From an uncultured Bacilli bacterium (GTDB lineage Bacteria; Bacillota_I; Bacilli_A; ML615J-28; CAG-313), in assembly GCA_904501965.1 (NCBI GenBank), contig CAJGCS010000001.1, positions 1 through 33,481 on the forward strand: a DNA stretch of 33,481 bases, given 5' to 3'. This document shows, piece after piece, positions 13,026 to 33,481 of the stretch (its first letter is position 1; every line of letters begins with the position of its first letter). The position numbers and the translations under genes were made by a program. The notes under the pieces were generated by a model, which did not search any database, was not told the origin of the DNA, and saw only the letters and a program-made list of their open reading frames with translations.

Positions 13026-13032
13026 TAAATTA

Positions 13033-13107: not shown

Positions 13108-13139
13108 ATAATAAGAGTACTTTCTAAGGAGATATAAAA

Positions 13140-16461: not shown

Positions 16462-16464
16462 AAA

Positions 16465-17730: not shown

Positions 17731-17741
17731 TTAAAAATAAG

Positions 17742-17775
17742 TGGTGGTTTTTTATGAAAACCACCATTTTTATTT
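17742..17775 (+). terminator. strong rho-independent terminator
   Basis: TGGTGGTTTT (17742-17751), loop TTATG, then AAAACCACCA (17757-17766), followed by TTTTTATTTTC. Confidence 0.85.
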
Positions 17776-17855
17776 TCATTTTTAAGGTTAAATTTAAGTA
17801 TATTTTAGTTTTAGAAATTAATAAAAAAATACTTTTTGTTTTTAAGTTGTTTGAC

Positions 17856-17884
17856 TTGAATAAAAACGCTTTCTTTGGTATAAT
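17856..17884 (+). promoter_or_regulatory. sigma-A promoter with extended -10 for the GH20/ABC operon
   Basis: TTGAAT (17856-17861), a 17-nt spacer ending in TGg (17876-17878), then TATAAT (17879-17884). A GAGGTGA RBS precedes the ATG at 17936. The spacer contains a cre-like element, TAAAAACGCTTTCT (17861-17874). Confidence 0.65.
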
Positions 17885-17935
17885 AAGTATATCATAGACG
17901 AGTATGTCTTGAACGACTAGAAATGAGGTGACTTT

Positions 17936-19774
17936 ATGTTTAAATCTATTAAAATTGTACCCGTACCAAAAGTATTGAAACTAGAAGATGGGTATTTTAT
18001 TTTGCCTGAAATTGTAACAATTTCTTTCAAAAACTTTGTTAAAGATTTGAATATGTTAAGAGTAATAAAAGCGTTTAGTAAATATTTACCTTCATTCAAA
18101 GTTCAAAACGACTTGTCTTGTGTAAACTTTATTAAAACTGATATTTTAGATAGTGCTTATGAAATCAAAGTAGAAAAAGATCAAATCAATGTTTTTGCAA
18201 GTACTGCATCGGGAATGTTTTACGCTATTCAAACATTAAAACAAATTACTTTTGAAAATAAAGTTAAATGTTGTTATATTAGCGATTACCCTGATTTAAA
18301 AGTCAGAGGGGCAATGCTTGATATAAGTAGAAGTAAAGTTCCTAAGGTAGAAACAATCAAACAGATATTTGATATGCTTGCTTTTTTAAAGTTTAATCAT
18401 GTTGAGTTATATGTTGAAGGATTCTCATATGAATATAAGAGTTTTCCGAATGTCTTAAAAGATGGAAACTATTTAACTGTTGATGAATATAAACTTCTTG
18501 AATCGTATGCGTTTGAAAATTTCTTGGATTTTGTTCCAAATCAAAATGGCTTTGGCCATATGGGTGATTGGCTTCAACTAGATGAGTATAAAGATTTAGC
18601 TGAATGTGTTGACGGATTCACAATCTGGGGTGCATGGCGAAAGACAACAACTTTAAACCCACTTGATGATAGGTCAATTGAACATGTTAAAAAGATGTAT
18701 GCAGATATGATCCCTATTACTAAGTCAAATTATTTCCACATGAATTTTGATGAACCTTATGAGCTTGGACATGGTAAGTCAAAAGAAAAAACTGCTGAGT
18801 CTTCAGTAGAAGATGTATATATTGATTATTTGCATAAACTTTCAAGTGTTGTAAAAGGATATGGAAAAACACCACTTATTTGGGGTGATGTTGTAATTAA
18901 ACATCCCGAAGCAATTAAAAAAATTGATGAAGATATTATCCTAGTCGATTGGGGATACACAAAAACATATCCATTTGAACCACACGCAAAAATGCTTCAT
19001 GAACAAGAAAGAAAGTTCATGTTAGCAGGTGGAACAAGTACTTGGGGAGTTATTACTAGCAGATATCAAGATATGTATGAATCAATTAAAAACTCATGTG
19101 AAAATTCATTTAAATATGGTGGACTTGGTACAATAACTACCGATTGGGGAGATATTGGTCACTTACAATATTTACCTAATTCATATTTGGGATTTATTCA
19201 TGCATCGCTATTTAACTGGAATCAAAGTATTACAGAAGAAGAACATAACGATGTATTTGAAGATGCACTTGAAAAATTTGTTGGTGCTGATGTAAAGGAA
19301 GCTTTATTAAAACTTTCGAGATATACAGAGCTTGAAGGTGAATATAGAGACTATGGAAGTAGATTATTTTATCATATCCTTTGGGCAGAGCACGCACAAA
19401 ATAATGAATCACCACTTGATTTCTTCTTAACAAAGATGAAGAGCAACTATTTAAGTGTTGATTCTCAAAATAAAATATCAGATTTATTAAATGAAGTATA
19501 TGAAAAATTGTTTAAACTAGAAAGCCTTGAAGCAAAAGAATTATTAAATTCAATAAGCTTACTTAAGACTTTACTAGAAATTAATAAAAAGCTTCAAGCT
19601 TCTTGTACTGATTTTAGGAGTGAAATTAGTGCGCTAGATGACTTCGAAGCAAATCATCTTGCTCTTTGGAATAATCGTAACAAAGAAGCAGGTTTTAAAT
19701 TCTCTATTAATCGTATTAAATGGTTAAAACAAATATTAGTTCAAATAGAAATGAAGGGAGACAAAAATGAGTAG
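17936..19774 (+). CDS. GH20-family beta-N-acetylhexosaminidase-like protein, cytoplasmic
   Basis: GH20b N-domain pattern IVPVPKVLKLEDGYFIL...YEIKVEKDQINVFASTASGMFYAIQTLKQI. The catalytic domain has VRGAMLDISRSKVP (compare RGxMLDxxRHF) and a D-E pair in HMNFDEPYELG (compare H(I/L)GGDE). No signal peptide is present. Confidence 0.75.
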   Translation: MFKSIKIVPVPKVLKLEDGYFILPEIVTISFKNFVKDLNMLRVIKAFSKYLPSFKVQNDLSCVNFIKTDILDSAYEIKVEKDQINVFASTASGMFYAIQTLKQITFENKVKCCYISDYPDLKVRGAMLDISRSKVPKVETIKQIFDMLAFLKFNHVELYVEGFSYEYKSFPNVLKDGNYLTVDEYKLLESYAFENFLDFVPNQNGFGHMGDWLQLDEYKDLAECVDGFTIWGAWRKTTTLNPLDDRSIEHVKKMYADMIPITKSNYFHMNFDEPYELGHGKSKEKTAESSVEDVYIDYLHKLSSVVKGYGKTPLIWGDVVIKHPEAIKKIDEDIILVDWGYTKTYPFEPHAKMLHEQERKFMLAGGTSTWGVITSRYQDMYESIKNSCENSFKYGGLGTITTDWGDIGHLQYLPNSYLGFIHASLFNWNQSITEEEHNDVFEDALEKFVGADVKEALLKLSRYTELEGEYRDYGSRLFYHILWAEHAQNNESPLDFFLTKMKSNYLSVDSQNKISDLLNEVYEKLFKLESLEAKELLNSISLLKTLLEINKKLQASCTDFRSEISALDDFEANHLALWNNRNKEAGFKFSINRIKWLKQILVQIEMKGDKNE

Positions 19775-22700
19775 AACTAACTTAAAACACATTAAGCGTA
19801 TATTTACAATCGTTATGGTCGCATGTGCTGGTATCTTAGCCTTCTCTAACTTTAAAGGATTAAATAAAGTTGTTGCAGAAGAAAATCCAGAAATCAGTTT
19901 TGACGATGTATCAACATACGTAGATAATGAATATGATAGTTACTTAGAAGAACAATATTATAATCATGCTGAAAAACAAAAAGAATATACTATTGTTACT
20001 TCTGACATTAATCCTATTAATGCAAGTAACTATCATAAAGAAGGAACAGACATTTATTATAATGGTGATTTTGTTACAATTAAAGCAATTATAAGTAATG
20101 GTTATTTGTTCAAAGAAGAATCAACTTCATATAATTATGATACAGATATATATGAAGTTATTAATATCAATGATATTAATAAAGATGAAGGTGTTTCTTT
20201 AGATTTAATTGCAAGCAAAACAGTTATCTTAAAACAAGATAATGAAGATGGTTCTTCCACTTATTATCGTGAAAATGTAAAACTTGCAAATCTTCAAAAT
20301 GTTAAATTTGACGAAATGCTTCTTCAACAAGATGAAGGTAAAGTTACTTGGGAAGTAGTTGTTCCTAAAGCTGGTTTTTATAACTTAGCTATGAGTTATT
20401 ATCCAATTACAGGTAACAGTTCAAATATTGAAAGAAGTTTAGCAATTAACGGTAAGATTCCATTTGATGGTGCCGACACATTCTCATTCTCAAGAATTTG
20501 GCAAGACCGTGAAAGCTCTTATGAATTTGATGAAAATGGAAATAAAATTGGTTTAAAAACAGACGTTAAAGGAAATGATTTAAAACCTAAACAAGTTGAA
20601 AATCCATATTTAATTTCTTCATATTTTAGAGATGATATGGGATATGTAAATGAACCATATATGTTCTATTTTAATGAAGGTCCAAACTATATTACATTTG
20701 TTTCTGTAAAAGAACCAGTATTAATTGATCAACTAATTCTTGAAGGAAAAACAGTCTATTCAACATGGAAATTTGGAGATATAGATACTAACATTGAAGT
20801 TAACTACAATGATGAAGTTGTTTTCAAAGAAAATATTGTTGTAGAAAACGGACAAGAACGTAAAGTTACTTCATGGTGGATTAATGATAAAGATACAAAA
20901 ATCGAACACAAAGATGTTGAACCAGTTAAAGCATTAAAACAAAAAGGTATTTTAACTTATAAAGAGTATCTTGAATTGCATAAAGATAAAAAGAATGCAA
21001 CTAGTTCACCTGCAAGAATTGAAGCAGAAAATACATTCACAAAATCATCTCCAACACTTTACCCATCAACAGATAGATCAAGTTCACAAACTTATCCATT
21101 CTCATATACTACAACAAAACTTAATGTTATTGGTGGTACAAACTGGCAAGTTTTAGGTGACTGGATCACATGGCAAGTAACAGTTCCAGAAGATGGTTTC
21201 TACAACATTTCAATGCGTGCTAAACAAAATATGGTAAGAGGTATGTACTCAAGCCGTAAAGTTTACATCAATGATGAAATCTTATTCGATGAACTAAATG
21301 ACGTACAATTTAAATACAAAAACAATTGGCAAATCGTTACATTAGGTAATGATACAGAAGACTTCTTATTCTATTTAGAAGCAGGTCAAACTTATACAAT
21401 TAAAATGGAAGTTACTCTTGGACAATATGCACCACTTATCGAAGACTTACAAGTATGTATCGATGAATTAAGTGCAATTTATCGTATGATTATTGCTCAT
21501 ACAACTGTAACTCCTAAAGCTGGTACTGACTACCAACTTAAGAAAAATTTCCCATCACTTGAAAGTGATTTAATTAGAAACCGTGATGAGCTTGTAAGAA
21601 TTTCAAATGAAATTAGTGCAATCTCAGGTGGTAAGAGTGATAAAACAGGTGTAATTGATAACGTAGTTATTCAATTAAAAGACTTCATTAAAGACGTTGA
21701 AATTATTCCTACTCGTCTAAGTACATTTAGTAGTAACGTATCATCACTTGGTACATTACTTAATACATTAAGAGAGTTACCTTTACAACTTGACTGGGTT
21801 TGGGTTCATGCGCCTGAAGAAAAACTTCCAGCCGCAAATGAAAACTTCTTCAGAAAGATTTGGGACTCTGTTGTATCATTCGTTCTTTCATTCTTCCTTG
21901 ACTATTCTTCAATCAGCCAAACTGAAGAACAAGAAATAGTAGGTGAAGTAGTTGATATCGATGTTTGGATGACACTTGGTCGTGACCAAGCAAACGTTAT
22001 CAGAAGTTTGATTGATACGGACTTCGCGAAGAAAAATCCAAATATTCGCGTTGAATTAAAACTAACTGCGGGTGATGTATTATTAAAAGCAACACTTGCA
22101 GGTATTGGGCCAGATGTTGCCTTAAACGTTGATTCATCTTTACCAGTAAACTATGCATTAAGAAATGCAGTTATGGATTTATCAGATCGAATCTATGAAT
22201 ATGAATATAAATTAGAAACAAAAGATGGCAAACTTGCTCTTGGTAAGGATAAATTACCAATCCTTGCTAAAGATTCATCAGGTTCTTATACATATGCTAC
22301 TGATAGTTTAGGTAATAAGGTTATCCAAGCGACTTATTTACTTGCAGAAGATATGAAAAAATCTAGTGATTCATCTTTACCAACAGTTACTGATATTCAA
22401 TTATTTATGAATAGAACTTATCCAACATATTTTGATGCTTTAAGAGAAGAAATTAGATCAAAAGGTGTTGAAGAAAGTGCTGTTGAAAAAGAATTAATAG
22501 TTTTATTAAGCACTGAAGTTGTTATGAAAGCAGGTATGGCAATTCCAACATACTTATATGAATTATATCCTTCAATGTTTAGTGTATTAAGAAATATTGA
22601 CAATTCAAAAATTGTATCTAAACTTGTTAAAGATCAAGACTTCTTAATGATTCCTCAATATACTGATTTTAACTTCTGGGAACAAACAGGTGTTTATAAT

Positions 22701-23765
22701 CATGCAAATAATGTATATATGGAAAGTTCATTAAGACAATTCCAATTCCAATATGATTATAAAGATGGTACTTCAGGTTATGGAACTTATTCACTTCCTG
22801 AAAAACAAATCTTCTTAATGATGTTCGTTCGTGATGATATTATGAATGAACTTGGTTTAACTGAAATGATACCTGATACTTGGGATGAAATGATTGACTT
22901 AATTGCAGAATTACAAACTGACCAATTACAATTCTATCTACCAGTTAACTCTGAAGGTGCATCAGCACTTAACCCAATTTTCGTATCTAAGTTATATCAA
23001 CAAGGTGCAAGCATTTATGCATCTGATAATAGATCTACAGGTTTCAAGAGTGATGAAGCTATGAAAGCATTTGAAGAATGGACAGAATATTACACATTAT
23101 ATTCATTCCCATTAGCTGCTAACTTTACAAACCGTTTCCGTTCTGGTGAACAACCAATCGGTATTTCTTATTATGAATTATATAATACACTAAGTGTATT
23201 TGCTCCTGAGCTTAAAGGTCGTTGGTCATTCCATCAAATTCCTGGTACTCAAAAAGAAATTGAACTAGTAGATGATAATGGCAATAAGACTGGTGAAACA
23301 GTTGAATATATTGACAGAACAGCAGTAGCATCTGGTACAGGTTGTGTTATGATGAGACAATCTGGTGGTTCTGCAAAACATCAACAAGATTCTATGGACG
23401 CTGCTTGGGAATTTATGAAATGGTGGTCTTCAGCTGAAACACAAACTTCATTCGGTCGTGAAATGGAAGGTATCTTAGGTTCAGCAGCAAGACATACTAC
23501 TGCAAACGTTAAAGCATTACAACAACTTGCATGGAAGAAATCTGACCTTACTGTATTAATGCAACAATGGTCTTCAGTACATGAAATTCCACAAATCGCA
23601 GGTAGTTACATTACTGGTCGTGAAATCGAAAATGCATATCGTCAAGTAATTAATAACGGTTATAATCCTCGTGAAGTATTATATGAATATGCAGGAAAAA
23701 TTGATATTGAAATTGATAGAAAACGTCAAGAGTTTGGCTTAAAGATGTCAGGCGAAGGCAATTAA
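19767..23765 (+). CDS. giant (1332-aa) extracellular solute-binding protein with two N-terminal CBM6/35-like beta-sandwich modules fused to a family-1 sugar SBP
   Basis: N-terminal signal/anchor IFTIVMVACAGILAF. CBM-like module 1 lies at about 20300-20760 (KVTWEVVVPKAGFYNLAMSYYP...). CBM-like module 2 lies at about 21010-21425 (ARIEAENTFT...DWITWQVTVPEDGFYNISMRA...YTIKMEV). The SBP fold runs from about 21950 (VDIDVWMTLGRDQANVIRSLI..FAKKNPNIRVELK...GPDVALNV) to the end, with a large insert. A GGGAG RBS is present and the start overlaps the GH20 stop by 8 nt. Confidence 0.75.
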   Translation: MSRTNLKHIKRIFTIVMVACAGILAFSNFKGLNKVVAEENPEISFDDVSTYVDNEYDSYLEEQYYNHAEKQKEYTIVTSDINPINASNYHKEGTDIYYNGDFVTIKAIISNGYLFKEESTSYNYDTDIYEVININDINKDEGVSLDLIASKTVILKQDNEDGSSTYYRENVKLANLQNVKFDEMLLQQDEGKVTWEVVVPKAGFYNLAMSYYPITGNSSNIERSLAINGKIPFDGADTFSFSRIWQDRESSYEFDENGNKIGLKTDVKGNDLKPKQVENPYLISSYFRDDMGYVNEPYMFYFNEGPNYITFVSVKEPVLIDQLILEGKTVYSTWKFGDIDTNIEVNYNDEVVFKENIVVENGQERKVTSWWINDKDTKIEHKDVEPVKALKQKGILTYKEYLELHKDKKNATSSPARIEAENTFTKSSPTLYPSTDRSSSQTYPFSYTTTKLNVIGGTNWQVLGDWITWQVTVPEDGFYNISMRAKQNMVRGMYSSRKVYINDEILFDELNDVQFKYKNNWQIVTLGNDTEDFLFYLEAGQTYTIKMEVTLGQYAPLIEDLQVCIDELSAIYRMIIAHTTVTPKAGTDYQLKKNFPSLESDLIRNRDELVRISNEISAISGGKSDKTGVIDNVVIQLKDFIKDVEIIPTRLSTFSSNVSSLGTLLNTLRELPLQLDWVWVHAPEEKLPAANENFFRKIWDSVVSFVLSFFLDYSSISQTEEQEIVGEVVDIDVWMTLGRDQANVIRSLIDTDFAKKNPNIRVELKLTAGDVLLKATLAGIGPDVALNVDSSLPVNYALRNAVMDLSDRIYEYEYKLETKDGKLALGKDKLPILAKDSSGSYTYATDSLGNKVIQATYLLAEDMKKSSDSSLPTVTDIQLFMNRTYPTYFDALREEIRSKGVEESAVEKELIVLLSTEVVMKAGMAIPTYLYELYPSMFSVLRNIDNSKIVSKLVKDQDFLMIPQYTDFNFWEQTGVYNHANNVYMESSLRQFQFQYDYKDGTSGYGTYSLPEKQIFLMMFVRDDIMNELGLTEMIPDTWDEMIDLIAELQTDQLQFYLPVNSEGASALNPIFVSKLYQQGASIYASDNRSTGFKSDEAMKAFEEWTEYYTLYSFPLAANFTNRFRSGEQPIGISYYELYNTLSVFAPELKGRWSFHQIPGTQKEIELVDDNGNKTGETVEYIDRTAVASGTGCVMMRQSGGSAKHQQDSMDAAWEFMKWWSSAETQTSFGREMEGILGSAARHTTANVKALQQLAWKKSDLTVLMQQWSSVHEIPQIAGSYITGREIENAYRQVINNGYNPREVLYEYAGKIDIEIDRKRQEFGLKMSGEGN

Positions 23766-23779
23766 TAAGGAGGAATAAA

Positions 23780-25144
23780 ATGGATATAGCATTATATATT
23801 ATATTTGGTATTTCAGTTGTTGCATTAGCAGTTTTATTCTTCTTTGTATTAAAAGGAGCTAAGAAAAAAACTGGTGGTTTCCAAAAAGAAATCAAAGCTC
23901 CTAAAGTTAAAAAACCTGAAAAATCTCGTGAAGAAAAAGCACGAGAAAAAGCAGAATTAAAAGCTGCAATGAAAGTTAAAAGAGCTGAATGGAAAGCTGA
24001 AGATAAAATATTCGATGATAAGTGCAAAGCTAATATTGTTGAGTTCAAAAAAGAAGTTAAAGAGAAAAAACCTCGTTACTTAGAACTTAAAAAAGCATAT
24101 CATGAAACAGTTAAATCTAAGAAAAATGATCAAGCAATTATTGATGAATATGTAGCTTATAGTAAAGAATATGAACGCTTACTTCAAAAGTTAAGAATCG
24201 AAAAAGATCGTATTTCTTTAATCAAGAAAGTTGATAGATGGAGTAAACGTGGAGGCAAATTAAGAAGGGAAATATTCGTTAAGAGACAATATTACTATTT
24301 AGTAGCTCCTTATACAATTTTATTCTTCATATTTACTGTTTTACCAGTTTTAATGTCTTTAGTATTAAGTTTCACAAACTTCAACTTACTTGAATTCCCA
24401 GACTGGGTTGGATGGGATAACTACATGCAATTATTCGTTAACGATAAAGTATTTATTATCGCTCTTCGTAATACTGCATTACTTGCTGTTGTAACTGGTC
24501 CACTTAGTTATATTATGGCATTCGTATTCGCATGGCTAATTAATGAATTAAAACCTCTTCTAAGAAGTTTCATGACATTAATCTTCTATGCTCCATCTAT
24601 TTCAGGTAACGTATACTTAATCTGGAAATTAATTTTCTCAAGTGATATTTATGGTTATGCTAATGCATACTTAATTCAATTTGGTATCATTGATGAACCA
24701 ATCACTTGGTTACAAGATTCAACATATATTATTTGGATCTTAATTATCGTACAATTATGGTTATCACTTGGTGTAAGTTTCTTATCATTCATCGCTGGTT
24801 TACAAAGTGTTGATAGAATTTACTACGAAGCTGGTGCTATCGATGGTATTAAAAACCGTTGGCAAGAATTATGGTACATAACTCTTCCACAAATGAAATC
24901 ACAATTATTATTCGGTGCCGTAATGCAAATTACATCGAGTTTGTCGGTAGCTGCGGTATCAATAAATATCGCCGGATTCCCGTCAATCGAGTATGCCGGA
25001 CACACAATTATTACTCACTTAATGGACTTCGGTAACCTAAGAATGGAAATGGGTTATGCGTCTGCAATTGCAACTATCTTATTCATTATCATGATTGTTG
25101 CAAATATGTTAGTAAGAAAAATTTTAAGAAGGATAGGTTCATAG
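23780..25144 (+). CDS. carbohydrate ABC transporter permease (MalF/CUT1-like) with a 170-aa N-terminal extension
   Basis: AGGAGG RBS. The core from about aa 171 has 6 TM segments and the EAA-type loop YYEAGAIDGIKNRWQELWYITLPQM. It is preceded by an extra TM helix (aa 4-24) and about 145 aa of Lys/Glu-rich helical sequence. Confidence 0.85.
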   Translation: MDIALYIIFGISVVALAVLFFFVLKGAKKKTGGFQKEIKAPKVKKPEKSREEKAREKAELKAAMKVKRAEWKAEDKIFDDKCKANIVEFKKEVKEKKPRYLELKKAYHETVKSKKNDQAIIDEYVAYSKEYERLLQKLRIEKDRISLIKKVDRWSKRGGKLRREIFVKRQYYYLVAPYTILFFIFTVLPVLMSLVLSFTNFNLLEFPDWVGWDNYMQLFVNDKVFIIALRNTALLAVVTGPLSYIMAFVFAWLINELKPLLRSFMTLIFYAPSISGNVYLIWKLIFSSDIYGYANAYLIQFGIIDEPITWLQDSTYIIWILIIVQLWLSLGVSFLSFIAGLQSVDRIYYEAGAIDGIKNRWQELWYITLPQMKSQLLFGAVMQITSSLSVAAVSINIAGFPSIEYAGHTIITHLMDFGNLRMEMGYASAIATILFIIMIVANMLVRKILRRIGS

Positions 25145-25145
25145 T

Positions 25146-26171
25146 ATGGCTTTAGGTAAAATTAAAGTAGATGACGATCAATTAGCTGGTGTTCAACTGT
25201 CTAAGGCTGAAAAGAAACGCCTTCGTCGTCAAGAAAAGAAATTAAAGAAGTATGGTATTAGAGACGAAAGTAAAATGAATAAAGTAGAAAAATTCTTCTA
25301 CAATATTCAAAAACGTCGTCGTATTAAAAAACGTAAACGTGTTAGCCGAAGCTTTATCGGTGATGCTGCACTATTCTTATTACTATGTGCTTTCGGTGCA
25401 TTCAGTGCTTATCCGCTTGTATATACAATTTTTGCAGCTTTTAAACCACTTGCAGAATTATTTATTTATCCACCTAAACTATTCGTAATGAATCCAACAC
25501 TTGATAACTTCAGTGACTTATCTAACCTTTTATCAGATTCATGGGTACCGTTTAGTAGATATTTATTTAACACAGTATTTATTACACTTGGTGGTACAGT
25601 TGGTCACGTGCTTATTGCATCAATGGCTGCTTATCCACTTGCAAAACACAAATTCCCAGGAAGCGTGTTTATTTTCCAAATGGTTGTTTATTCATTAATG
25701 TTCGCAGGTCAAGTAACAGATACTCCAAGATACATGATTTTCAGTTTCTTAGGATTAGTTGATACTCCGCTTGCAATTATCGTTCCAGCCTTTGCTTATT
25801 CACTTGGTTTATACTTAATGAAGCAGTTTATGAGTGATATTCCAACAGAGCTAATTGAATCAGCTAAGATTGACGGTGCGAATGAATTCCAAATTTATTG
25901 GAAAATCGTTATGCCACTAGTTAAACCAGCATGGTTAACATTAATTATCTTATTATTCCAAAACTTATGGAATACAGATGGTGGTACATTCATTTATAGT
26001 GAAGCTAAGAAACCTTTAAGTTATGCGTTACACCAAATCGTTGCTGGTGGTATCGCAAGAACAGGTACTTCAGCTGCAGTTATGCTAATTATGATGGCAG
26101 TGCCAATTACAGTATTTATCTTGTCACAAAGTCAAATCATTGAAACAATGGCACACTCAGGTATGAAATAG
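25146..26171 (+). CDS. carbohydrate ABC transporter permease (MalG/CUT1-like) with a ~68-aa Arg/Lys-rich N-terminal extension
   Basis: EAA loop ESAKIDGANEFQIYWKIVMPLVKP and 6 TM segments. The N-terminus contains KAEKKRLRRQEKKLKKYG...QKRRRIKKRKRVSRS. It starts 2 nt after the previous stop. Confidence 0.85.
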   Translation: MALGKIKVDDDQLAGVQLSKAEKKRLRRQEKKLKKYGIRDESKMNKVEKFFYNIQKRRRIKKRKRVSRSFIGDAALFLLLCAFGAFSAYPLVYTIFAAFKPLAELFIYPPKLFVMNPTLDNFSDLSNLLSDSWVPFSRYLFNTVFITLGGTVGHVLIASMAAYPLAKHKFPGSVFIFQMVVYSLMFAGQVTDTPRYMIFSFLGLVDTPLAIIVPAFAYSLGLYLMKQFMSDIPTELIESAKIDGANEFQIYWKIVMPLVKPAWLTLIILLFQNLWNTDGGTFIYSEAKKPLSYALHQIVAGGIARTGTSAAVMLIMMAVPITVFILSQSQIIETMAHSGMK

Positions 26172-26189
26172 GAAATAGAGGTTAGAGTT

Positions 26190-29100
26190 ATGAGAAAAAT
26201 GAAAAATTTATTTAAAACATTAACAATCATCGCTTTAGTCTTTGGTTTCTTCTTTGCACCAATCTTTGGTAGTGCTAAAGCAATGAGTTATAACTATGAT
26301 TTCTGGAAAAATATTATTCCTTCTGCTGAAGGTATTGCTCATAAAGATACTTTCTATTCTGAAAATATTGAATATTACAAAAATGATGAATATGAACTTA
26401 AAGTAGAACAATTAAATAAACTATTAGATGATTTATCATTAAGTGATATTAAAGAGGTTGTATCAAAACCTAATTATAAAGAAATCACAGCTGATGATTA
26501 TAACAATGCAATTATTGCAATTGATGCAAAAGACTTAAATGATGAGACAAAAATAAATCTTAAAATCTTAATTAATCTGAAAAAAGAATACGAAGCTGAT
26601 CCAAACTTATATAAATCAATAAGCTTTAATACAATTACTGATATTCAAGTTTATGGAGATTATTTATATGTTTTATCAACTCCTACAGCAATGGACATTT
26701 CAAACGTTACTGGTACTGCAAGAGTTGCAGAACTTACTCAATTAATCATTATCAATAAAGAAATGAAATGGGAAACATGCATTAATGAATTTGAAATTAC
26801 AGAAAATGTAAGAGATTCGTTTGATGATTATTATCAATGGAATAGACTTAGTTTCTCTTCTGTTGCAACTGGTAAAAACCATACAGTTGCTGTAGATACA
26901 TCAGGAAATATTTGGGCATGGGGCTCAAATGAATATGGTCAAATTGGTATTGACCCATCAGTAGAAACTTATGTTGCAGAGCCTAAACAAATCACTTGGA
27001 TAGGTGATAAAAATGCAAGAGCATACACAAAAGTATTTGCTACAGATTACGCAACATTCGCTCTTGATTCAAATAATAATTTATGGGCATTTGGTAAAAA
27101 TGAAAATCATTTAATTTCAGGTGAACAAAATGAAGATTTTTATCAACATGAATTAATTAATATTGAATTAAAAGATACTATTGATGAAAATAACCCAGAA
27201 ACAGAAGTTACTGGTACTGTAAAAGTAGTAAGTGTTGCTGATGACCACATTTTCGTAATTGATAGCGAAAGCCGTGTGTGGGCATGGGGTGACAATAGTG
27301 ATAGATTACTTCAAGTTGAAAAAATTACAGAAGACATTGTTAAATCACCAAAACTTACAACTATTAATTTAACAAGAGAAGATAAATATAATCTTGATTC
27401 AGCAGGTAACCCTACAATAATCAAATTAAAACCAGTTGATATTCAAGCTGGTCAAAACCATACTGTAATTGTTGATGATGAAGCATCACTTTGGGCATGG
27501 GGATCAAATGATTATGGTCAACTTGGTTTAGGAGATTTTGTAAAAAGAACTGTTCCTACATTAGTTGAATTAAAGAAAAATAATGTTAAGGTTGGTGTAG
27601 CTTCAATTGCCGTTGGTCAAAACCATACAGCTCTTGTAGACAAACTTGGTGGTTTATGGGCATTTGGTTCAAATAGTCACTGTCAAATTGGTTTAAGTAC
27701 AGAAGATGGACTTACATTTGCACAACCATATGCATATTTCCATAAAAACATCGAATATACAAAAGTATTTGCTTTTGGAAATACAACATATGCAATTGAT
27801 ATGTCATATCAATCATATGTATTTGGTCAAAATGATCATTATCAATTAGGCTTTGTTGAAGAGGGAAAAGATTCAAGTCAATTACCTTATTCAATTAATC
27901 CAAATAATGTTTCATTAACATTTGTTGCTAACAGTGGTGATGCTACATTCGGTATTGACTCTTCAAATCGTTTATGGATTTGGGGTACAAGTGATACTAA
28001 ATTAGGATTTGGTTCAACAGAAGATATTAAAAATCCTAAATATAGTGACACAAGATTAGAATTAAATAATATTGCTATTGGCCGTTTAGAAAATTCAGAT
28101 ATTTATAAACGTGCAATCTATGTTGCTCATTCAAAAGATGAAACAAAACCTGCAGTTTACTTAAGAAGTGCTGCTGGTATCGCAGTAGATGAAAACTTCA
28201 TTTACATTGCAGACACACAAAATTCAAGAATTTTAAAAATTAATAAACTTACATATGTTGTTGAAGATGTTTGCTTAACTCCAGCAAATACAACATTCAA
28301 ACAATTAAATTTAGACTCAACTGTTCTACAAGCCGTTTCTCTTCGTCAATTTAAACCTACTAAAATTACAGTGTCTCCTACAGGTAGAGTTTATGCAATT
28401 GCAGAACAAGTTTACGAAGGTATTATTGAGTTTAATAAACAAGGTGATTATAACCGTTACTTAGGACAAAACGATGTTGTTGCAAATCCGCTTAAAGAAA
28501 TGCTTCGTGATTATTTAACTGAAGAACAACTTGCATCATTTGCCTTAACACTTCCACCACTATTTACAAGTATTAGTACAGATAGTAAAGGGTTCATTTA
28601 TGCGACATCTTACCCTGATACAGAATCTGGTTCTATTGCTGGTCAAAACATGGTTAAAGCAATTAATACATCTGGTAAAGACTGTATGAAACGTAATGGT
28701 TATGTAGCACCAAATGGTGATGCTGTTTATATTTCATCATCACAAAATTCTAAAGCAATTTTAGGCCCATCATATTTAGTTGACGTTGCAGTTAATAAAG
28801 ATGGTAACTTCACTGTTGTAGATGAAGTAAGAGGTCGTTTATTTACATATGACCTTGATGGTAACTTATTATATATCGCTGGTGATCAACCAGGTGGTAC
28901 AAAACAAAATGCATCAGGTTTATCTGAAAATATTATTAAACCAGTTGCAATTGATTATATGTATCGTACTTATACAAATGCTGATGGCGAAGAAATCAAT
29001 GACCAATTAATCATTGTTGCTGACCAACAATCTAAGAGCTTAATGTATTACGAAACTACAGAATTTGGACGTTTAGTAAATGAAGCTACTGGAGCTTATA

Positions 29101-29495
29101 ACCGTGGTGTTGATACTCGTGAAGAAGCAATTGCGGTTAGAGTTATTTGGGAAGAAGTTCGTCAAAGAAATACTAACTATGAATTAGCATACTTAGGTAT
29201 TGGTAAATGTATTTTAGTTGAAAGTGACTATGTTGAAGGTAAAACTGCAAAAGATATCACAAATGAACAATTAAAACTTTACCAAGAAGCTATGAAAAAC
29301 TTTAGACTTGCTCACTCTGGTACTTATTATTCAAAAGCATTTGGACGTTATCGTGACCAAATCTTAAGTGATAACTTCAGTTGGATTATGACAGCTGCTG
29401 TTATTATTGCAGTTGGTGCCGCAGGATGGTTTGTTTACAAAACTATCAAAGCAAAACAAGCTAAAAAAATTAAAGTGCAAGGAGGAAGTAAGTAA
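26190..29495 (+). CDS. surface protein with a seven-blade RCC1-repeat propeller plus an NHL-like propeller, a signal peptide and a C-terminal TM anchor
   Basis: Signal peptide ...IFGSAKA/MS. Seven RCC1-type blade signatures lie between about 26860 and 28030: WAWGSNEYGQIG, WAFGKNENHLISG, WAWGDNSDRLLQ, WAWGSNDYGQLGLG, WAFGSNSHCQIGL, YVFGQNDHYQLGF and WIWGTSDTKLGFG, several preceded by G(K/Q)NHT(V/A). NHL-like blades lie at about 28170-29060 (AGIAVDENFIYIADTQNSRILKI, PTKITVSPTGRVYAI, VDVAVNKDGNFTVVDEVRGRLFTYDLDGNLL, LIIVADQQSKSLMYY). The C-terminal TM WIMTAAVIIAVGAAGWFVY is followed by KTIKAKQAKKIK. Confidence 0.8.
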   Translation: MRKMKNLFKTLTIIALVFGFFFAPIFGSAKAMSYNYDFWKNIIPSAEGIAHKDTFYSENIEYYKNDEYELKVEQLNKLLDDLSLSDIKEVVSKPNYKEITADDYNNAIIAIDAKDLNDETKINLKILINLKKEYEADPNLYKSISFNTITDIQVYGDYLYVLSTPTAMDISNVTGTARVAELTQLIIINKEMKWETCINEFEITENVRDSFDDYYQWNRLSFSSVATGKNHTVAVDTSGNIWAWGSNEYGQIGIDPSVETYVAEPKQITWIGDKNARAYTKVFATDYATFALDSNNNLWAFGKNENHLISGEQNEDFYQHELINIELKDTIDENNPETEVTGTVKVVSVADDHIFVIDSESRVWAWGDNSDRLLQVEKITEDIVKSPKLTTINLTREDKYNLDSAGNPTIIKLKPVDIQAGQNHTVIVDDEASLWAWGSNDYGQLGLGDFVKRTVPTLVELKKNNVKVGVASIAVGQNHTALVDKLGGLWAFGSNSHCQIGLSTEDGLTFAQPYAYFHKNIEYTKVFAFGNTTYAIDMSYQSYVFGQNDHYQLGFVEEGKDSSQLPYSINPNNVSLTFVANSGDATFGIDSSNRLWIWGTSDTKLGFGSTEDIKNPKYSDTRLELNNIAIGRLENSDIYKRAIYVAHSKDETKPAVYLRSAAGIAVDENFIYIADTQNSRILKINKLTYVVEDVCLTPANTTFKQLNLDSTVLQAVSLRQFKPTKITVSPTGRVYAIAEQVYEGIIEFNKQGDYNRYLGQNDVVANPLKEMLRDYLTEEQLASFALTLPPLFTSISTDSKGFIYATSYPDTESGSIAGQNMVKAINTSGKDCMKRNGYVAPNGDAVYISSSQNSKAILGPSYLVDVAVNKDGNFTVVDEVRGRLFTYDLDGNLLYIAGDQPGGTKQNASGLSENIIKPVAIDYMYRTYTNADGEEINDQLIIVADQQSKSLMYYETTEFGRLVNEATGAYNRGVDTREEAIAVRVIWEEVRQRNTNYELAYLGIGKCILVESDYVEGKTAKDITNEQLKLYQEAMKNFRLAHSGTYYSKAFGRYRDQILSDNFSWIMTAAVIIAVGAAGWFVYKTIKAKQAKKIKVQGGSK

Positions 29496-30265
29496 TGATT
29501 TTAGAAGTTAAAATTATCTTAATTGCTCTTACAATCCTTGCTATTGCTGGTGTTGTTGGGCTAATCGTTGGTCTTGCAACTGGCAAACAAGAACTATGTT
29601 TAAAAATAGCAAAAGCTATTAAAGCAAAAATTGTTCAATTTTATAACGATGTTATTAAATTTCCAATTTACATCATTACACACCCAGTTCAAGGGTTTAA
29701 TGAATTTAAAGTTGAGAAAAAAGGTAAGATGTATGCAGCATTATCAATTCTTGCATTCTACATCTTAGTTCAAATCTTAACACCAAACTATGAAGGTGGA
29801 ACAACAAACGTTGCAAACCCAATGAATTTTAACAGTTTAAAAATTGTTGTATTTGGTGTTGTTCCTGTTATCTTAATCGCAGTTGCTAACTGGAGTATCA
29901 CATCATTATTTGATGGTAAAGGTAAAATGAAAGAAATCTTTATGATGATTTGTTACTGTTACTTCCCATTAGCAGTTTGTGGTTTATTAAGATTAATCGT
30001 TAGTAACTTTGTTACATCAGATGAAGTATTATTCTTAACTATTATTGATATAGTCGGTCTGTTTGGAACGGGTTATATGTTATTTATGGGGCTTGTCGTA
30101 ATTCATGAATACGGAGTATTTAAAACTATTATTTCAGTAATTGGTACTGTTGTTGCAATATTAATTATCTTATTCTTAGCATTATTAATATTCGACCTTG
30201 CTAACCAAGTATTTAGTTTCTTTAGCTCAATATTCAAAGAAATTATGGTAAGATTCATGTCGTAA
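29495..30265 (+). CDS. Yip1-family polytopic membrane protein
   Basis: The start shares one base with the preceding stop (TAATG), and a GGAGGAAG RBS is present. An N-terminal TM is followed by HPVQGFNEFKVEKKGKMYAALSILAFYILVQIL, which matches the HPxxGFxxLKxExKG pattern I associate with bacterial YIP1-family proteins. Four more TM helices follow. Confidence 0.65.
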   Translation: MILEVKIILIALTILAIAGVVGLIVGLATGKQELCLKIAKAIKAKIVQFYNDVIKFPIYIITHPVQGFNEFKVEKKGKMYAALSILAFYILVQILTPNYEGGTTNVANPMNFNSLKIVVFGVVPVILIAVANWSITSLFDGKGKMKEIFMMICYCYFPLAVCGLLRLIVSNFVTSDEVLFLTIIDIVGLFGTGYMLFMGLVVIHEYGVFKTIISVIGTVVAILIILFLALLIFDLANQVFSFFSSIFKEIMVRFMS

Positions 30266-30282
30266 AGGAGGGAGTATCGCAT

Positions 30283-33200
30283 ATGATAGTTATTCTTATT
30301 ACAGCAATTATAATTACAATTGTGGTGCTTCTTGCAAAACGCCGCAATAAAAAACAAAAAGAAGAACAACCAAAAGAAGTTGAAGTAGTTGTTCAAAAAG
30401 ATTCAAAAGAAGTTTTAGACGAAAAAGAATCAATTAAAAAAGCTGAAGAAATTGTAAGAAGAAGAAAAAGATATAATCGTATTCTTAAATTATCTCTTAC
30501 AGTAATCTTACTTGCAGCTATTGAAATTGTTGCTGGTATCTTCTTCTTCGATACATACAAAGCAAACAGTGCTTCATTCCATAATGCTACTTCAAAAGAA
30601 TATTGGAATACTCTTCCTGGTTTTGAACATTATGATAAATTATATGAAAAGTATGTTGAAACTGTAGATATTAATAGTGCTAAATATGTTAGCCCATTTG
30701 ATTATTCAGAGTCTATTTATGTTAACATCAAAAAAGCACGTTATCAAGAAGAATTAGATCTTCTTATAACACCATATAAAAATGAATTAAGAACTACAAA
30801 AGATGAAGATAGAAAACTAGAACTTGAAAAAATCATTGATGAAGCCGACCTTCATAAATCAACTCTTTCTCCTCTTAAAGATTATAAAGTAAAAGAAGCT
30901 TTATCATACAAAAAAGTAGCTGAAAATGATGGTTATGAATTTTGGTTACATATGGGTCTTACAACATTTAAAGTTGTAGACAAAGTAAATGGTACAGTTT
31001 GGTATTCAAATCCAGAAACTTACTCTACTGATAAAGAAGATGCTCAAAAAGACATCTTAAAAATTTGGTACAGTAGAACAGGATCTAATTCAGTAAGTTT
31101 TGGTACATATGATTATTCAACATCAACATCATTTAGAGGAAGTACAAAAGACGTTAATCCAAACTTTGCAGTAAAAGTTATTACTGAAGAAGTGGGCGGA
31201 AAAGATGTATCTACAATTCAAGTATGGTACAAATTAGAAGAACGTGGTGTTAACTGGACATATTTCCCTAAATACATTAGTAAAGCAACATTTGATGCTT
31301 TAGTAGCTGAAAATGCTCGTTTAGTAGCTGAAGGTGCTCAATATGATGATAATGGCACATTAAAAGATGTTACTGACATCACTACTTCAAAATTCGATAA
31401 AAAAGATGCTGTTACAATGGTCGAAAGAGTATTTACAAGTCCTGCAGCTGACTATAAACTTATCTCTAAAGATAGTGTATTAAATCAATTTGGAGAAGAT
31501 TATTATGAATATAATAGTAATCTTGAAAAAATGAATGACTTAGCATTAAACCGTTTATATATGCTTTACACACACTGTGGTTTTACTCTAGATAAATTAG
31601 AAGAAGAAAATGATTATTTCCAATCTATTTCTGATGAAAAAGGATTAGGACTTACAGTAAGTAATGTTACTCATTCAAATGCATCATTTACTGTTGCAAT
31701 TCAATACCAATTAACAGAAGATGGATTAAATGTTACTATTCCAGGTAATTCAATTTCTGAAAATGGTGAAAACTTAGTTGTTTATATCGACTTACTTGAA
31801 TACTTCACTGCTGCTCGAATTACAGAAGATGGTTACACAATTATCCCTGATGGAAGTGGTGCTGTATTAAATCATAATAATGGTAAGACTAATAACCTTC
31901 CATACAATAAGCGATTATATACAACAGACCTTTCAATGACAGAAGAAGTTATGAAAGCTTCTACTGAAGATATCATGTTACCAATGTATGCCGTAGTTAA
32001 TACTACAAGTAAATCAGCTGTTATTGCCGATGTAATCGATGGTGCAGCTCAAATGGAATTATATGCGGACATTTCTGGACGTGGTAATGAAACTCATAAT
32101 AGAAACTACTTTAGAATTCATTATCATGAATCTCAAGTTGTTAAAGTTTCATCTGTAATGCAACCAATTGATAAATATAATAATTTATTCATGAATAACG
32201 ATATTTCAGTTGACTTCCGTTTCTATGGAGCTGATGTTGTTGAAGATGGATATTCTGGTATTGCTCATGCATATCGTGATTTATTAGTTAAACGTTACGG
32301 TATGCAAAACAAAAAAGATACAACTGATGATTTAGTAATCGATATTGATGTTCTTGGTTCTTATAACTTTAAAAACAATGTATTTGGTATTGTTTATAAC
32401 GATAAAGAAACATTAACAACATATGAAGAATTACAAAAGATGATCACTGATATCGAATCAAAACAATTTAAGAATATTAACATATTCTATAAAGGATGGA
32501 GAGATACTACTTTAGTTAATACTTCATTCAAAAATATCAAAGCTTATAATGCCTTAGGTAAATTAAGCAAACTTGCAGAAATTGAAGATATGGAAGGCGT
32601 AAATGTTTATCCTTATATTAATTTCGGTCAAATTAATAAATATCAAGAATCATTTGGTAGCTATCACTACAATACAAGAAACGTAATCGGTGAAATTATT
32701 ACAATCTATCCTTATGACTTACAATCAAATATATGGAATAAGAAAGCTCAAAAGATTAATATTCTTTCTCCTCGTTACTATGAAGCATTTGCTCAATCAC
32801 TTGCAGATAGTTATTCAAGTGTGTTCAAAATTGGTAAGAAAAATGAAGTTCTTACAAATATCTCAGTTGATTCTCTAGGTTCAGTATTAACTGGTGACTA
32901 TCAAAAGAATCAAGAAATGTTTAAGATTAATGCTGTATACGAACAAATTAAGGCTCTAGAAGTTATTAAAAATGCTGGTATCACAAACATTAACTTATAC
33001 AAACCTTATGACTATGCATTCCCTTATGTTTCTAATGCAAAAGAAATCCCTTACGAATCTACACATTATGAAATTCTTAACTATTCAATTCCATTCTATC
33101 AATTAGTTGTAAATGGATTATTCGATTATAGTGGAGAAAGTATTAATGCTAACAGCGAAGAAGGTGTTAAATATCATATCTTAAGAATGTTAGAAACTGG

Positions 33201-33480
33201 TTCAAATGCATCATTCACATTCACTCATGATGGTTCAGAAGTATTATTAAAAACTGATTACAACCAATACTACTATACTGAATATTCATTATGGTTAGAA
33301 GAAGTTGCTAAAGTTTATAATGAAATTTCTTCTACTGGAGTTAGTGGATTAAGACTTGTAAAACATGAATTCATTAAAGAAGGTGTTTCATTAGTAACAT
33401 ATGCTTCAGAAGATGGTGCAAAACAAGTTCAAATCTTAATTAACAATACATTTACAGATTATGTAGACTCAGAAACAGGA
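30283..33480 (+). CDS. large membrane-anchored protein, DUF5696-like (3' end outside the window; not in the supplied ORF track)
   Basis: My manual translation of frame 1 from the ATG at 30283 (AAGGAGGGA RBS 9 nt upstream) is open for 1066 codons to the window end. The N-terminus is TM1 (IVILITAIIITIVVLL), a charged loop (KRRNKKQKEEQPKE...RRRKRYNR), then TM2 (LSLTVILLAAIEIVAGIFFF). A large extracytoplasmic domain follows, with motifs such as YTIIPDGSGAVLN (31843-31863 = IPDGSGA), LPMYAVV and NINLYKPYDYAFPY. The family assignment is from memory of DUF5696 proteins and is unverified. Confidence 0.75.
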   Translation, partial: MIVILITAIIITIVVLLAKRRNKKQKEEQPKEVEVVVQKDSKEVLDEKESIKKAEEIVRRRKRYNRILKLSLTVILLAAIEIVAGIFFFDTYKANSASFHNATSKEYWNTLPGFEHYDKLYEKYVETVDINSAKYVSPFDYSESIYVNIKKARYQEELDLLITPYKNELRTTKDEDRKLELEKIIDEADLHKSTLSPLKDYKVKEALSYKKVAENDGYEFWLHMGLTTFKVVDKVNGTVWYSNPETYSTDKEDAQKDILKIWYSRTGSNSVSFGTYDYSTSTSFRGSTKDVNPNFAVKVITEEVGGKDVSTIQVWYKLEERGVNWTYFPKYISKATFDALVAENARLVAEGAQYDDNGTLKDVTDITTSKFDKKDAVTMVERVFTSPAADYKLISKDSVLNQFGEDYYEYNSNLEKMNDLALNRLYMLYTHCGFTLDKLEEENDYFQSISDEKGLGLTVSNVTHSNASFTVAIQYQLTEDGLNVTIPGNSISENGENLVVYIDLLEYFTAARITEDGYTIIPDGSGAVLNHNNGKTNNLPYNKRLYTTDLSMTEEVMKASTEDIMLPMYAVVNTTSKSAVIADVIDGAAQMELYADISGRGNETHNRNYFRIHYHESQVVKVSSVMQPIDKYNNLFMNNDISVDFRFYGADVVEDGYSGIAHAYRDLLVKRYGMQNKKDTTDDLVIDIDVLGSYNFKNNVFGIVYNDKETLTTYEELQKMITDIESKQFKNINIFYKGWRDTTLVNTSFKNIKAYNALGKLSKLAEIEDMEGVNVYPYINFGQINKYQESFGSYHYNTRNVIGEIITIYPYDLQSNIWNKKAQKINILSPRYYEAFAQSLADSYSSVFKIGKKNEVLTNISVDSLGSVLTGDYQKNQEMFKINAVYEQIKALEVIKNAGITNINLYKPYDYAFPYVSNAKEIPYESTHYEILNYSIPFYQLVVNGLFDYSGESINANSEEGVKYHILRMLETGSNASFTFTHDGSEVLLKTDYNQYYYTEYSLWLEEVAKVYNEISSTGVSGLRLVKHEFIKEGVSLVTYASEDGAKQVQILINNTFTDYVDSETG

Positions 33481-33481
33481 A

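Follow-up and report, generated by a model that had tools for sequence, protein, structure and literature searches.

The seven-gene operon at the end of a gut Bacilli contig is the probable 5′ half of a larger locus joining a conserved eight-gene membrane cassette to exchangeable cargo

In Gram-positive bacteria, polysaccharide utilisation loci (gpPULs) are built on CUT1-type ATP-binding cassette (ABC) importers, as in Roseburia and Eubacterium. ABC glycan import in these bacteria is usually described as a substrate-binding protein (SBP), two permeases and enzymes. Salvage of peptidoglycan and N-acetylmuramic acid (MurNAc) is known from the MurQ-MurP-AmiE-NagZ-NamZ proteins of Bacillus subtilis and from MurNAc scavenging by Tannerella forsythia. 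Among transporter accessory subunits, 4F2hc and rBAT are glycosidase-fold heavy chains of heteromeric amino-acid transporters, and in B. subtilis the YknXYZ ABC exporter works with a partner of the Yip1 family, YknW. Here we report the analysis of a whole contig of 33,481 bp, called the window below, from an uncultured gut bacterium of the Bacilli or 'Mollicutes' type with 30 % GC (30.4 % over the whole window). Seven genes at its 3′ end encode a glycoside hydrolase of family 20 (GH20), a giant SBP, two permeases, an NHL-propeller protein, a Yip1-family protein and a DUF5696 protein. We consider it probable that they are the 5′ half of an operon of about 13 genes, in which a conserved eight-gene membrane cassette is combined with lineage-specific cargo. 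No publication was found on such a cassette, with its giant SBP, four permeases and NHL, Yip1 and DUF5696 proteins.

The locus resembles gpPULs in that glycoside hydrolases (GHs) lie beside an SBP-dependent importer of the MalF/MalG type, that the ATPase is encoded elsewhere and that one genome may hold paralogous loci with different enzymes. Unlike gpPULs, it has a fixed eight-gene core with two permease pairs and an SBP of about 950-1330 aa, which carries modules resembling carbohydrate-binding module family 35 (CBM35). The obligatory triad of NHL propeller, Yip1 and DUF5696 is no part of described gpPULs either. With the Sus-like systems of Bacteroidota the locus shares a core for capture and import that is conserved, glycan-binding proteins at the surface, a surface protein of the GH13 superfamily and enzymes that vary with the substrate. 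It differs from them by ABC importers across a single membrane and by DUF5696 which, unlike SusG, is conserved across substrates. Neither a SusC-like TonB-dependent transporter nor SusD was found among the window proteins or the genes checked in related loci, so that the locus does not belong to the Sus-like systems.

The seven genes are:
17936-19774, + strand: GH20-like enzyme, 612 aa, first gene of the operon, cargo
19767-23765, + strand: giant binding protein, 1332 aa, cassette gene 1
23780-25144, + strand: permease A, MalF/UgpA-type, 454 aa, cassette gene 2
25146-26171, + strand: permease B, MalG/UgpE-type, 341 aa, cassette gene 3
26190-29495, + strand: NHL and tetratricopeptide repeat (TPR) protein with an RCC1 insert, 1101 aa, cassette gene 4
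29495-30265, + strand: Yip1-family protein, 256 aa, cassette gene 5
30283-33481, + strand, open to the window end: DUF5696 protein, 1066 codons, cassette gene 6

These seven open reading frames (ORFs) follow one another with an 8-nt overlap, gaps of 14, 1 and 18 nt, one shared base and a gap of 17 nt, exactly as given in an earlier reading of the sequence only (the sequence-only reading). The domains named there (GH20, SBP_bac_8, two BPD_transp_1, RCC1-like with NHL, Yip1 and DUF5696) were all reproduced by a Pfam scan. The topologies of the seven proteins, including the long basic N-terminal tails of the permeases, were reproduced by a hydropathy scan.

The end of the contig falls inside the DUF5696 gene. 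Full-length relatives of this protein have 1078 aa, and therefore only about 12 codons are missing from the window. At locus L001, which is 91 % identical, the operon goes on with permease C, permease D, a DUF624 membrane protein, two NAGPA genes, GH3 and NagB. The same gene order is found at 41 % identity in L003/L004 and the same layout at 27 % identity in Acholeplasma laidlawii, where the tail consists of NamZ, GH3, a BcrAD_BadFG (MurK-like) kinase, a SIS (MurQ-like) etherase, GNAT and NagB. The sequence-only reading had closed the operon after seven genes; from the continuation in L001, it has at least 13, including a second permease pair. By inference from the same locus, NAGPA, GH3 and NagB would also belong to the operon of the window.

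Species-representative genomes (one per GTDB species) were scanned with a DUF5696 profile. At least 577 relatives were confirmed and 80 loci were kept, in which ORFs were labelled by phmmer and by hidden Markov models (HMMs) built from window and reference proteins. The cassette runs in the order giant SBP, permease A, permease B, NHL protein, Yip1, DUF5696, permease C, permease D. This order is nearly invariant among the loci, and the giant SBP measures 950-1330 aa across them. All seven partners of DUF5696 were present in 49 of the 57 loci with enough flank, each single partner in at least 53 of the 57, and the partners missing from the incomplete loci look like artefacts of the simple ORF caller. 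Median intergenic gaps in the cassette are -11 to +14 nt, and its parts co-diverge (Spearman rho 0.66-0.91). The sequence-only reading had suggested that Yip1 and DUF5696 genes recur beside oversized SBPs and CUT1 permeases. Conserved order, co-divergence and the fusions of NHL and Yip1 described below show that this association is real, much closer than assumed there, and indeed near-invariant across Bacillota and termite-gut Treponema. For the same reasons, a chance neighbourhood was ruled out.

The carriers include Paenibacillus, Cohnella, Saccharibacillus, Ruminococcus, Oscillospiraceae, Lachnospiraceae and Acholeplasma, as well as many metagenome-assembled genomes (MAGs) of gut 'Bacilli/Mollicutes' and termite-gut Treponema. 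Among the cultured carriers, the locus lies at 6.27 Mb in Paenibacillus baekrokdamisoli KCTC 33723, at 3.03-3.05 Mb in P. amylolyticus PAE5 and at 278-300 kb in Acholeplasma laidlawii 8195, and Ruminococcus flavefaciens YAD2003 is a further one. Loci L014, L029, L032 and L048 come from MAGs titled Prevotella or Bacteroidales, yet their cassettes are typically of the Bacilli type. These contigs are probably binning contamination and not true Bacteroidota carriers. An exhaustive HMM search of public data, clustered at 50 % identity, gave 5,779 DUF5696 clusters, and for 3,737 of these the E value was under 1e-30. Among the matches listed in species-representative genomes, the closest DUF5696 is 46 % identical, and a second, word-indexed protein search with the DUF5696 alignment gave no new sequences. 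In the full-text literature, no paper was found that mentions DUF5696, PF18952 or this gene combination, and queries for Yip1 with SBP, GH or permease, for NHL with Yip1 and ABC, and for CBM35 with SBP returned nothing relevant.

The cargo around the cassette is exchangeable, as seen in the following loci:
L042, Saccharibacillus: flanking cargo GH5 with a ricin domain, GH43
L049, Paenibacillus: flanking cargo GH30
L062, Lachnospiraceae: flanking cargo GH10, GH3, GH67
L059, Oscillospiraceae: flanking cargo GH10 with CBM4_9
L046, Treponema: flanking cargo GH130, SASA esterase
L064, Paenibacillus baekrokdamisoli: flanking cargo GH32
L082, Ruminococcus flavefaciens: flanking cargo GDPD

A census of 106 flanking ORFs gave 126 Pfam families. 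GH32 came first (9 members), followed by extra SBPs and AraC regulators, and then by GDSL esterases, GH30, GH10, GH5 and GH43. Because the flanking enzymes differ by lineage, the core of the cassette looks substrate-agnostic. The neighbour-joining order of DUF5696 follows the cargo, the GH32 loci of Anaerocolumna and Paenibacillus sitting together, and two cassettes with different cargo can occur in one genome (L015/L034, L028/L031, L060/L064). As judged from gene content, cassette and cargo would behave as a polysaccharide-utilisation platform.

Permease A matches BPD_transp_1 in Pfam and UgpA, GlcT and MalF in NCBIfam. It carries the EAA loop EAGAIDGIKNRWQELWYITLP, an extra N-terminal transmembrane segment and a K/R-rich basic tail of 146 aa. 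Permease B (BPD_transp_1; UgpE, GlcU and MalG in NCBIfam) also keeps the EAA loop and starts with a basic N-terminal tail of 75 aa. Since the EAA coupling loops are kept in all four permease families A, B, C and D, the cassette holds two complete translocator pairs. In the giant SBP, which has an N-terminal membrane anchor, Pfam places SBP_bac_8 on residues 996-1231, that is in the C-terminal third, together with a sub-threshold match to CBM_35. Using a profile of 49 orthologues, the last ~400 positions were found to match the CUT1 SBP Lin1841 (5ysb, 7e-28) and 5ci5 (8.5e-21). The second beta-sandwich of the profile matches segment 432-519 of the GH66 enzyme 5x7g (9e-8), which we take to be the CBM35 of that enzyme, and the part between this sandwich and the SBP matches coiled-coil designs. 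The giant SBP is thus predicted to consist of two CBM35-like beta-sandwiches, a helical bundle and a CUT1-type SBP. The architecture is common to the window protein and its Acholeplasma orthologue (38-47 % identity over both halves), residues ~807-983 of the window protein being a local insert. Two features of CUT1-type importers were found, namely an SBP of SBP_bac_1/8 fold and MalF/MalG-type permeases with EAA loops.

The 1101-aa product of cassette gene 4 has an N-terminal signal and a C-terminal transmembrane segment. It matches WD40_RLD/RCC1 with 300.9 bits (WD40_RLD, 2e-89) and NHL with 5e-8 in Pfam, and both domains of the RCC1/NHL double propeller proposed in the sequence-only reading are therefore present in the window protein. 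The RCC1-like seven-blade propeller is however a clade-specific insert, at residues ~220-570 (window 26850-27900), between an N-terminal piece and the NHL body. It occurs also in L001 and only in the nearest relatives of the window, and it was not found in orthologues elsewhere, which have 480-790 aa. Only the NHL/TPR part is conserved; with Acholeplasma, it comprises residues 629-1101 and a short N-terminal piece. A family profile of 48 orthologues matched the NHL propellers of PknD and of 'Pizza' proteins, down to 1e-41, as well as consensus TPR proteins. Six matched stretches were seen on Pizza6 proteins, and the PknD sensor 1rwi was matched at 1e-24. From these profile matches, the conserved body is predicted to be an extracellular, membrane-anchored six-bladed NHL propeller with TPR and a C-terminal transmembrane segment.

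The next gene product belongs to Yip1 (PF04893, 7e-16, 59 bits against a cut-off of 28.6) and has about six hydrophobic segments. Its start codon shares one base with the NHL stop codon in the window, and the median gap between the two genes is -1 nt across 52 loci. NHL and Yip1 form a single fused ORF in 18 loci, for example L050, L052 and L060. These loci belong to several lineages, and the fusion argues that the two proteins act together.

DUF5696 (PF18952) was identified in the window with 1.8e-119 and 400.5 bits against a cut-off of 25.6, over profile positions 17-600 of 612. Two N-terminal transmembrane segments precede the ectodomain. An AlphaFold2 model built on a 33-sequence alignment had a pLDDT of 83.5 and a pTM of 0.80. 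Foldseek searches of the PDB with this model retrieved ZgGH129 (5opq, 3.7e-21), NagBb (5wzn, 1.5e-17) and GH101 (5a58, 4e-10), with target-normalised TM-scores of 0.58-0.66 for the GH129 hits; GH101, GH36, GH31, GH66 and GH13 ranked below GH129. A second model, of the minimal 813-aa Acholeplasma DUF5696, gave the same ranking, with 5opq at 1.5e-23 and a TM-score of 0.53 when query-normalised and 0.64 when target-normalised. Across both models, 5wzn was found at ~1e-16 to 1e-17 and GH101 at ~1e-10; the overall E values noted for GH129/GH101 were 1e-15 to 1e-23. At the sequence level, the profile match to 5opq was weak and partial but colinear (E ~1e-4, two stretches). No GH101 or GH129 Pfam match was found in DUF5696, which places it outside these families as defined by sequence.

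In the models, a (beta/alpha)8 barrel lies between two beta-sandwiches, of which the N-terminal one carries a helical insert of ~120 aa. The structure test suggested in the sequence-only reading, AlphaFold followed by Foldseek, thus pointed to a glycoside hydrolase-type fold with a (beta/alpha)8 barrel, closest to GH129/GH101, and the ectodomain is predicted to have a fold of this type. The three-domain fold is common to DUF5696 and to the GH129 (NagBb 5wzn, ZgGH129 5opq) and GH101 (SpGH101 5a58, EngBF) enzymes. Unlike these enzymes, with which identity is ~10 %, DUF5696 is membrane-anchored, carries the ~120-aa helical insert and has a catalytic pair that is putative.

Conservation of acidic residues was examined in 75 DUF5696 members. 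The best-conserved ones, D523 and D549, lie in the N-terminal domain, in or after the invariant GYxxxPDGSG motif. D933 is conserved in 89 %, E971 in 91 % and D872 in 77 % of the members, and D523, D549, D933 and E971 span 89-96 %. The strictly invariant GYxxxPDGSG sits in the N-terminal beta-sandwich, not in the barrel. At the position after barrel strand 4, which is the GH13-type nucleophile site as placed from the fold, Asp is found in ~37 of the 75 members. The literature on GH129 and ZgGH129 held no residue-level mapping usable for the catalytic residues of DUF5696, and a search for full-length GH129 sequences with a 142-aa ZgGH129 fragment reconstructed from HMMER output found none. In NagBb, nucleophile and acid/base are D435 and E478, and D486 is the residue of ZgGH129 that is mutated in entry 8rzk; D863/D872 or D933 are the candidate counterparts in DUF5696, which may be catalytic.

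The nature of the substrate was approached through the cargo and is assigned by guilt by association. The GH20 gene lies directly 5′ of the giant SBP gene in more than 25 related loci. Its product matches Glyco_hydro_20 (1.7e-18, 67.6 bits against a cut-off of 22.3) and Glyco_hydro_20b (3.9e-10, 41 bits against 26.1) and is only distant from solved GH20 structures. The motif FHMNFDEP with D272-E273 presumably contains the GH20 catalytic Asp-Glu pair. No hydrophobic segment was found, in agreement with the cytoplasmic location assumed in the sequence-only reading. We predict that the protein is a cytoplasmic beta-N-acetylhexosaminidase-like enzyme. Upstream of the GH20 gene, a second operon was assigned by Pfam and NCBIfam:
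7731-17730, + strand: tight eight-gene operon

Its order is PBP4B/AmiE-like serine hydrolase, double GNAT, PIG-L deacetylase, GHL10, M19 dipeptidase, GHL10, GHL10. GHL10c matches the glycoside-hydrolase domain of Clostridioides difficile Cwp19 at 2.5e-74, and Cwp19 was shown experimentally to be a peptidoglycan lytic transglycosylase (PMC6016235). The catalytic domain of Cwp19 (PDB 5oq2) is common to all three GHL10 proteins of this operon. Unlike Cwp19, these proteins have no CWB2 repeats and their role would be nutritional, not autolytic. Signal sequences are present in GHL10a, GHL10b and the NAGPA proteins, and the other enzymes have none; two of the window GHL10 proteins carry Listeria-Bacteroides repeats and the third is cytoplasmic. 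In other genomes, the cassette operon itself includes homologues of the double GNAT and of GHL10, and in Acholeplasma the cassette is followed by a PIG-L gene. Because these homologues join the cassette elsewhere, the upstream operon and the cassette operon are probably one functional locus. The upstream operon appears to be a module for degrading cell-wall fragments that is linked to the cassette.

Every cassette of the gut Bacilli/Acholeplasma clade carries amino-sugar genes. In Acholeplasma loci, NamZ, GH3, MurK-like, MurQ-like and NagB genes follow the cassette, and MurNAc-specific enzymes are encoded beside it in the Acholeplasma-type loci L005, L030, L033, L041 and L056. The N-acetylhexosamine (HexNAc)-type substrate proposed from the sequence alone is thus supported by the cargo genes. 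Most likely, the substrate would be amino-sugar polymers from the walls of other bacteria, that is peptidoglycan, possibly with N-acetylglucosamine (GlcNAc)-phosphate polymers. For the window itself, the peptidoglycan link rests on GHL10/Cwp19, the PBP4B-like hydrolase and the M19 dipeptidase. Secreted Cwp19-like GHL10 and NAGPA proteins are the likely extracellular depolymerases here. MurNAc salvage systems resemble the Bacilli/Acholeplasma cargo in NamZ, a NagZ-like GH3, a MurK-like kinase, a MurQ-like etherase and NagB, to which the window adds the AmiE/PBP4B-like hydrolase. In contrast to these systems, uptake would use the ABC cassette and not the phosphotransferase system (MurP) or MurT, and the window has GH20, NAGPA and GHL10 without NamZ, MurQ and MurK.

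These observations can be assembled in a mechanism. Gene content, order, conservation, fusions, folds, topology and coupling loops were seen in the analysis; physical assembly, substrate and DUF5696 catalysis are proposals built on them. Outside the cell, the polymer would be cleaved by secreted Cwp19-like GHL10 proteins and NAGPA phosphodiester glycosidases. The polymer, or large pieces of it, would be retained at the membrane by the CBM-bearing giant SBP and by the propeller, the NHL/TPR protein working with Yip1 via its C-terminal transmembrane segment. DUF5696, the gene of which abuts that of permease C (median gap 0 nt), would trim or present fragments next to permeases C/D. Two ABC translocators, energised by a shared MsmK-type ATPase encoded elsewhere, would then import oligosaccharides. 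Finishing in the cytoplasm would involve GH20, GH3, the third GHL10, the PBP4B/AmiE-like hydrolase, the M19 dipeptidase, the PIG-L deacetylase, GNAT and NagB. Only tentatively do we propose that NHL/Yip1 and the GH129-fold DUF5696 are obligate subunits of a double ABC translocator, in which DUF5696 feeds permeases C/D without a classical SBP. 4F2hc/rBAT and YknW are precedents for a glycosidase-fold ectodomain and for a Yip1-family protein as transporter accessory subunits. They belong to unrelated transport systems, however, and the likeness is at the level of fold or family.

Several observations weigh against the proposed cassette and its role. The search for an ATPase (ABC_tran) gene of the cassette, over the window and the flanking genes checked at other loci, found none, and the only ABC_tran gene among the Pfam-scanned flanks of other loci is an unrelated exporter in L037. 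This absence is compatible with CUT1 membership, because CUT1 systems of Bacillota usually share a MalK/MsmK-type ATPase encoded elsewhere. A normal-size SBP near permeases C/D was present in 0 of the 18 loci of the window clade, and in 31 of 65 other loci. The window DUF5696 has Asn at position 933 (33079-33081), within the motif EILDYSIPFYQ of its relatives, 67 of 75 of which have Asp there. N933 is common to the window copy and its 91 % relative, all other clade members having Asp, and it may reflect a lineage-specific loss or change of function. ORF calling in the foreign loci was crude, a simple caller having been used. No experiment on any cassette component was found in the literature. 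Concerning the substrate, neither the window nor L001 contains NamZ, MurQ or MurK, and host mucin, chitin or GlcNAc polymers of the teichoic type would likewise be compatible with GH20, NAGPA, GH3 and NagB. Because of the missing NamZ, MurQ and MurK, host mucin or chitin is a possible substrate.

Other explanations of the locus were weighed. DUF5696 might be a non-catalytic pseudo-glycosidase, an extracytoplasmic partner of permeases C/D serving as receptor, presenter or chaperone, with NHL/Yip1 as a scaffold; we regard this as possible but rather doubtful. Its gene sits where an SBP gene would sit, directly next to permease C, and ordinary SBPs for permeases C/D are missing from the window clade; the normal-size SBPs of nearly half of the other loci (31/65) fit less well. 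The invariant motif lies in the N-terminal beta-sandwich and the presumed nucleophile position is poorly conserved, but the four acidic residues at 89-96 % conservation could be catalytic as well as ligand-binding, and loss of the catalytic site remains putative. Conservation of DUF5696 across loci for chemically unrelated glycans, together with the analogy to the GH13-like heavy chains 4F2hc/rBAT, speaks for such a partner role, whereas the clustering of DUF5696 sequences by cargo type is what substrate-specific enzymes would show.

The sequence-only reading itself had proposed a self-contained seven-gene operon, in which the products released from a HexNAc polymer by DUF5696 enter through a single tailed ABC system and are trimmed by GH20 in the cytoplasm. 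We find this unlikely. DUF5696 is indeed extracellular with a glycoside-hydrolase fold, the GH20 enzyme is cytoplasmic and its gene is conserved as the first of the operon, and several fold neighbours of DUF5696 are alpha-HexNAc-ases (NagBb GH129, GH101 and the N-acetylgalactosaminidases of GH31/GH36). However, the operon runs at least six genes further and includes a second permease pair. DUF5696 as a HexNAc-polymer depolymerase is doubtful for its part, since the same family is equally conserved in fructan, xylan, mannan and beta-glucan loci. In addition, every structural relative of DUF5696 is an alpha-glycosidase, whereas the bonds of chitin and of the peptidoglycan backbone are beta-1,4 and most cargo acts on beta-linked backbones, so that a depolymerase of one particular polymer is improbable. 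Asp occupies the fold-placed nucleophile position in only about half of the 75 members, the window has Asn at D933, and the secreted GHL10 and NAGPA proteins are better depolymerase candidates. Finally, it is highly improbable that the cassette serves the cell's own envelope by remodelling or recycling surface glycans, or that it senses extracellular ligands through its propeller as PknD does: the propeller profile does match the PknD sensor domain 1rwi (1e-24) and many cargo genes of the Bacilli clade overlap with peptidoglycan recycling genes, but wall-less Acholeplasma has the cassette and a full MurNAc catabolic set, other taxa carry the plant-polysaccharide hydrolases GH10, GH67, GH32, GH30 and GH130, the permeases belong to a type I importer that has an SBP, no kinase or signalling domain was found on the cassette proteins themselves and the nearby regulators are only of LacI or AraC type.

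The cassette proposed here, with its two permease pairs and its NHL/Yip1/DUF5696 triad, is a different, common and strongly conserved layout of Gram-positive glycan import, which recurs in loci for fructan, xylan, mannan, beta-glucan and the sugars of bacterial cell walls. If its parts form one machine, three 'unknown' families would gain functions, and the prediction of transport capacity and substrate range from Bacillota genomes would change. The cassette would then be the monoderm functional counterpart of the Bacteroidota Sus apparatus, and it would explain how gut Bacilli and Acholeplasma, with small genomes and partly wall-less, could live on the wall debris of other bacteria. Its presence in cultivable Paenibacillus, Acholeplasma laidlawii and Ruminococcus flavefaciens makes the idea directly testable.

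Signals for transcription and regulation of the operon were considered:
17739-17779, + strand: intrinsic terminator, 14-bp stem (hairpin 17739-17769) followed by a T-run, closing the upstream GHL10 operon
17856-17884, + strand: promoter-like site, TTGAAT, 17-nt spacer, TG-extended TATAAT, 52 nt 5′ of the GH20 start
5172-6236, + strand: LacI-family regulator (Pfam LacI and Peripla_BP_3)

The hairpin 17739-17769 has a dG of -16.2 kcal/mol and a z of -5.2, none of 200 shuffles folding as well, and the strong terminator seen ahead of the operon in the sequence-only reading was thereby confirmed. The promoter proposed there is present as a site matching 10 of 12 positions and ranking among the top-scoring hits of the + strand. 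Statistically, it is indistinguishable from background: 63 promoter-like hits were found across the AT-rich region against 92 expected from shuffles. Since such hits are no commoner than in shuffles, the promoter call rests on the position of the site between the terminator and the first gene. A ribosome-binding site, AGGTGA, precedes the GH20 ATG at 17936.

Two hairpins were found within coding sequence, neither with a proper U-tract. The first (22823-22851, + strand; 13 bp, dG -13.1 kcal/mol, z -3.9) lies in the giant SBP gene over the conserved MFVRDDIMNELGL and, having no U-tract, is probably not a terminator. The second (29378-29397, + strand) is no different from shuffles. The earlier statement that the operon has no internal terminator is therefore essentially right. 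No riboswitch or leader RNA was detected in the operon leader at Rfam gathering or E-value thresholds. The LacI-family protein is a candidate regulator of the locus, and LacI genes flank the cassette in L045, L049, L060 and L073. A LacI-type operator, TAAAAACGCTTTCT, was tried in the promoter spacer (17861-17874, + strand). It is a half-palindrome centred on CG, which we took to resemble the LacI-family/cre-type consensus. It occurs as a single copy and has no statistical support (14 operator-like sites against 8.8 expected, no enrichment), and the candidate was dropped; no significant operator for the LacI-family regulator was found.

Other features of the window are briefly reported. The 20 complete ORFs end with 14 TAA, 6 TAG and no TGA stop codons. 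An alternative genetic code, raised by the absence of TGA, is unnecessary, as every ORF is intact under table 11. A probable divergent T-box leader (6236-6404, + strand) lies 5′ of the tyrosyl-tRNA synthetase gene at 6484-7716. Its score of 65.4 bits (E 3.5e-14) is below the Rfam gathering score of 93, which is why the default scan missed it. Near the start of the window, a stand-alone condensation-domain protein of the nonribosomal peptide synthetase type (534-1898, + strand, 454 aa) is encoded beside two tandem TMEM164-family membrane proteins (1913-3700, - strand), an unusual combination. Just upstream of the LacI regulator gene, a MurC-like Mur ligase gene (3816-5087, + strand) scores 271 bits against the NCBIfam equivalog cut-off of 335. 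The ligase could serve biosynthesis, as MurC does, or salvage.

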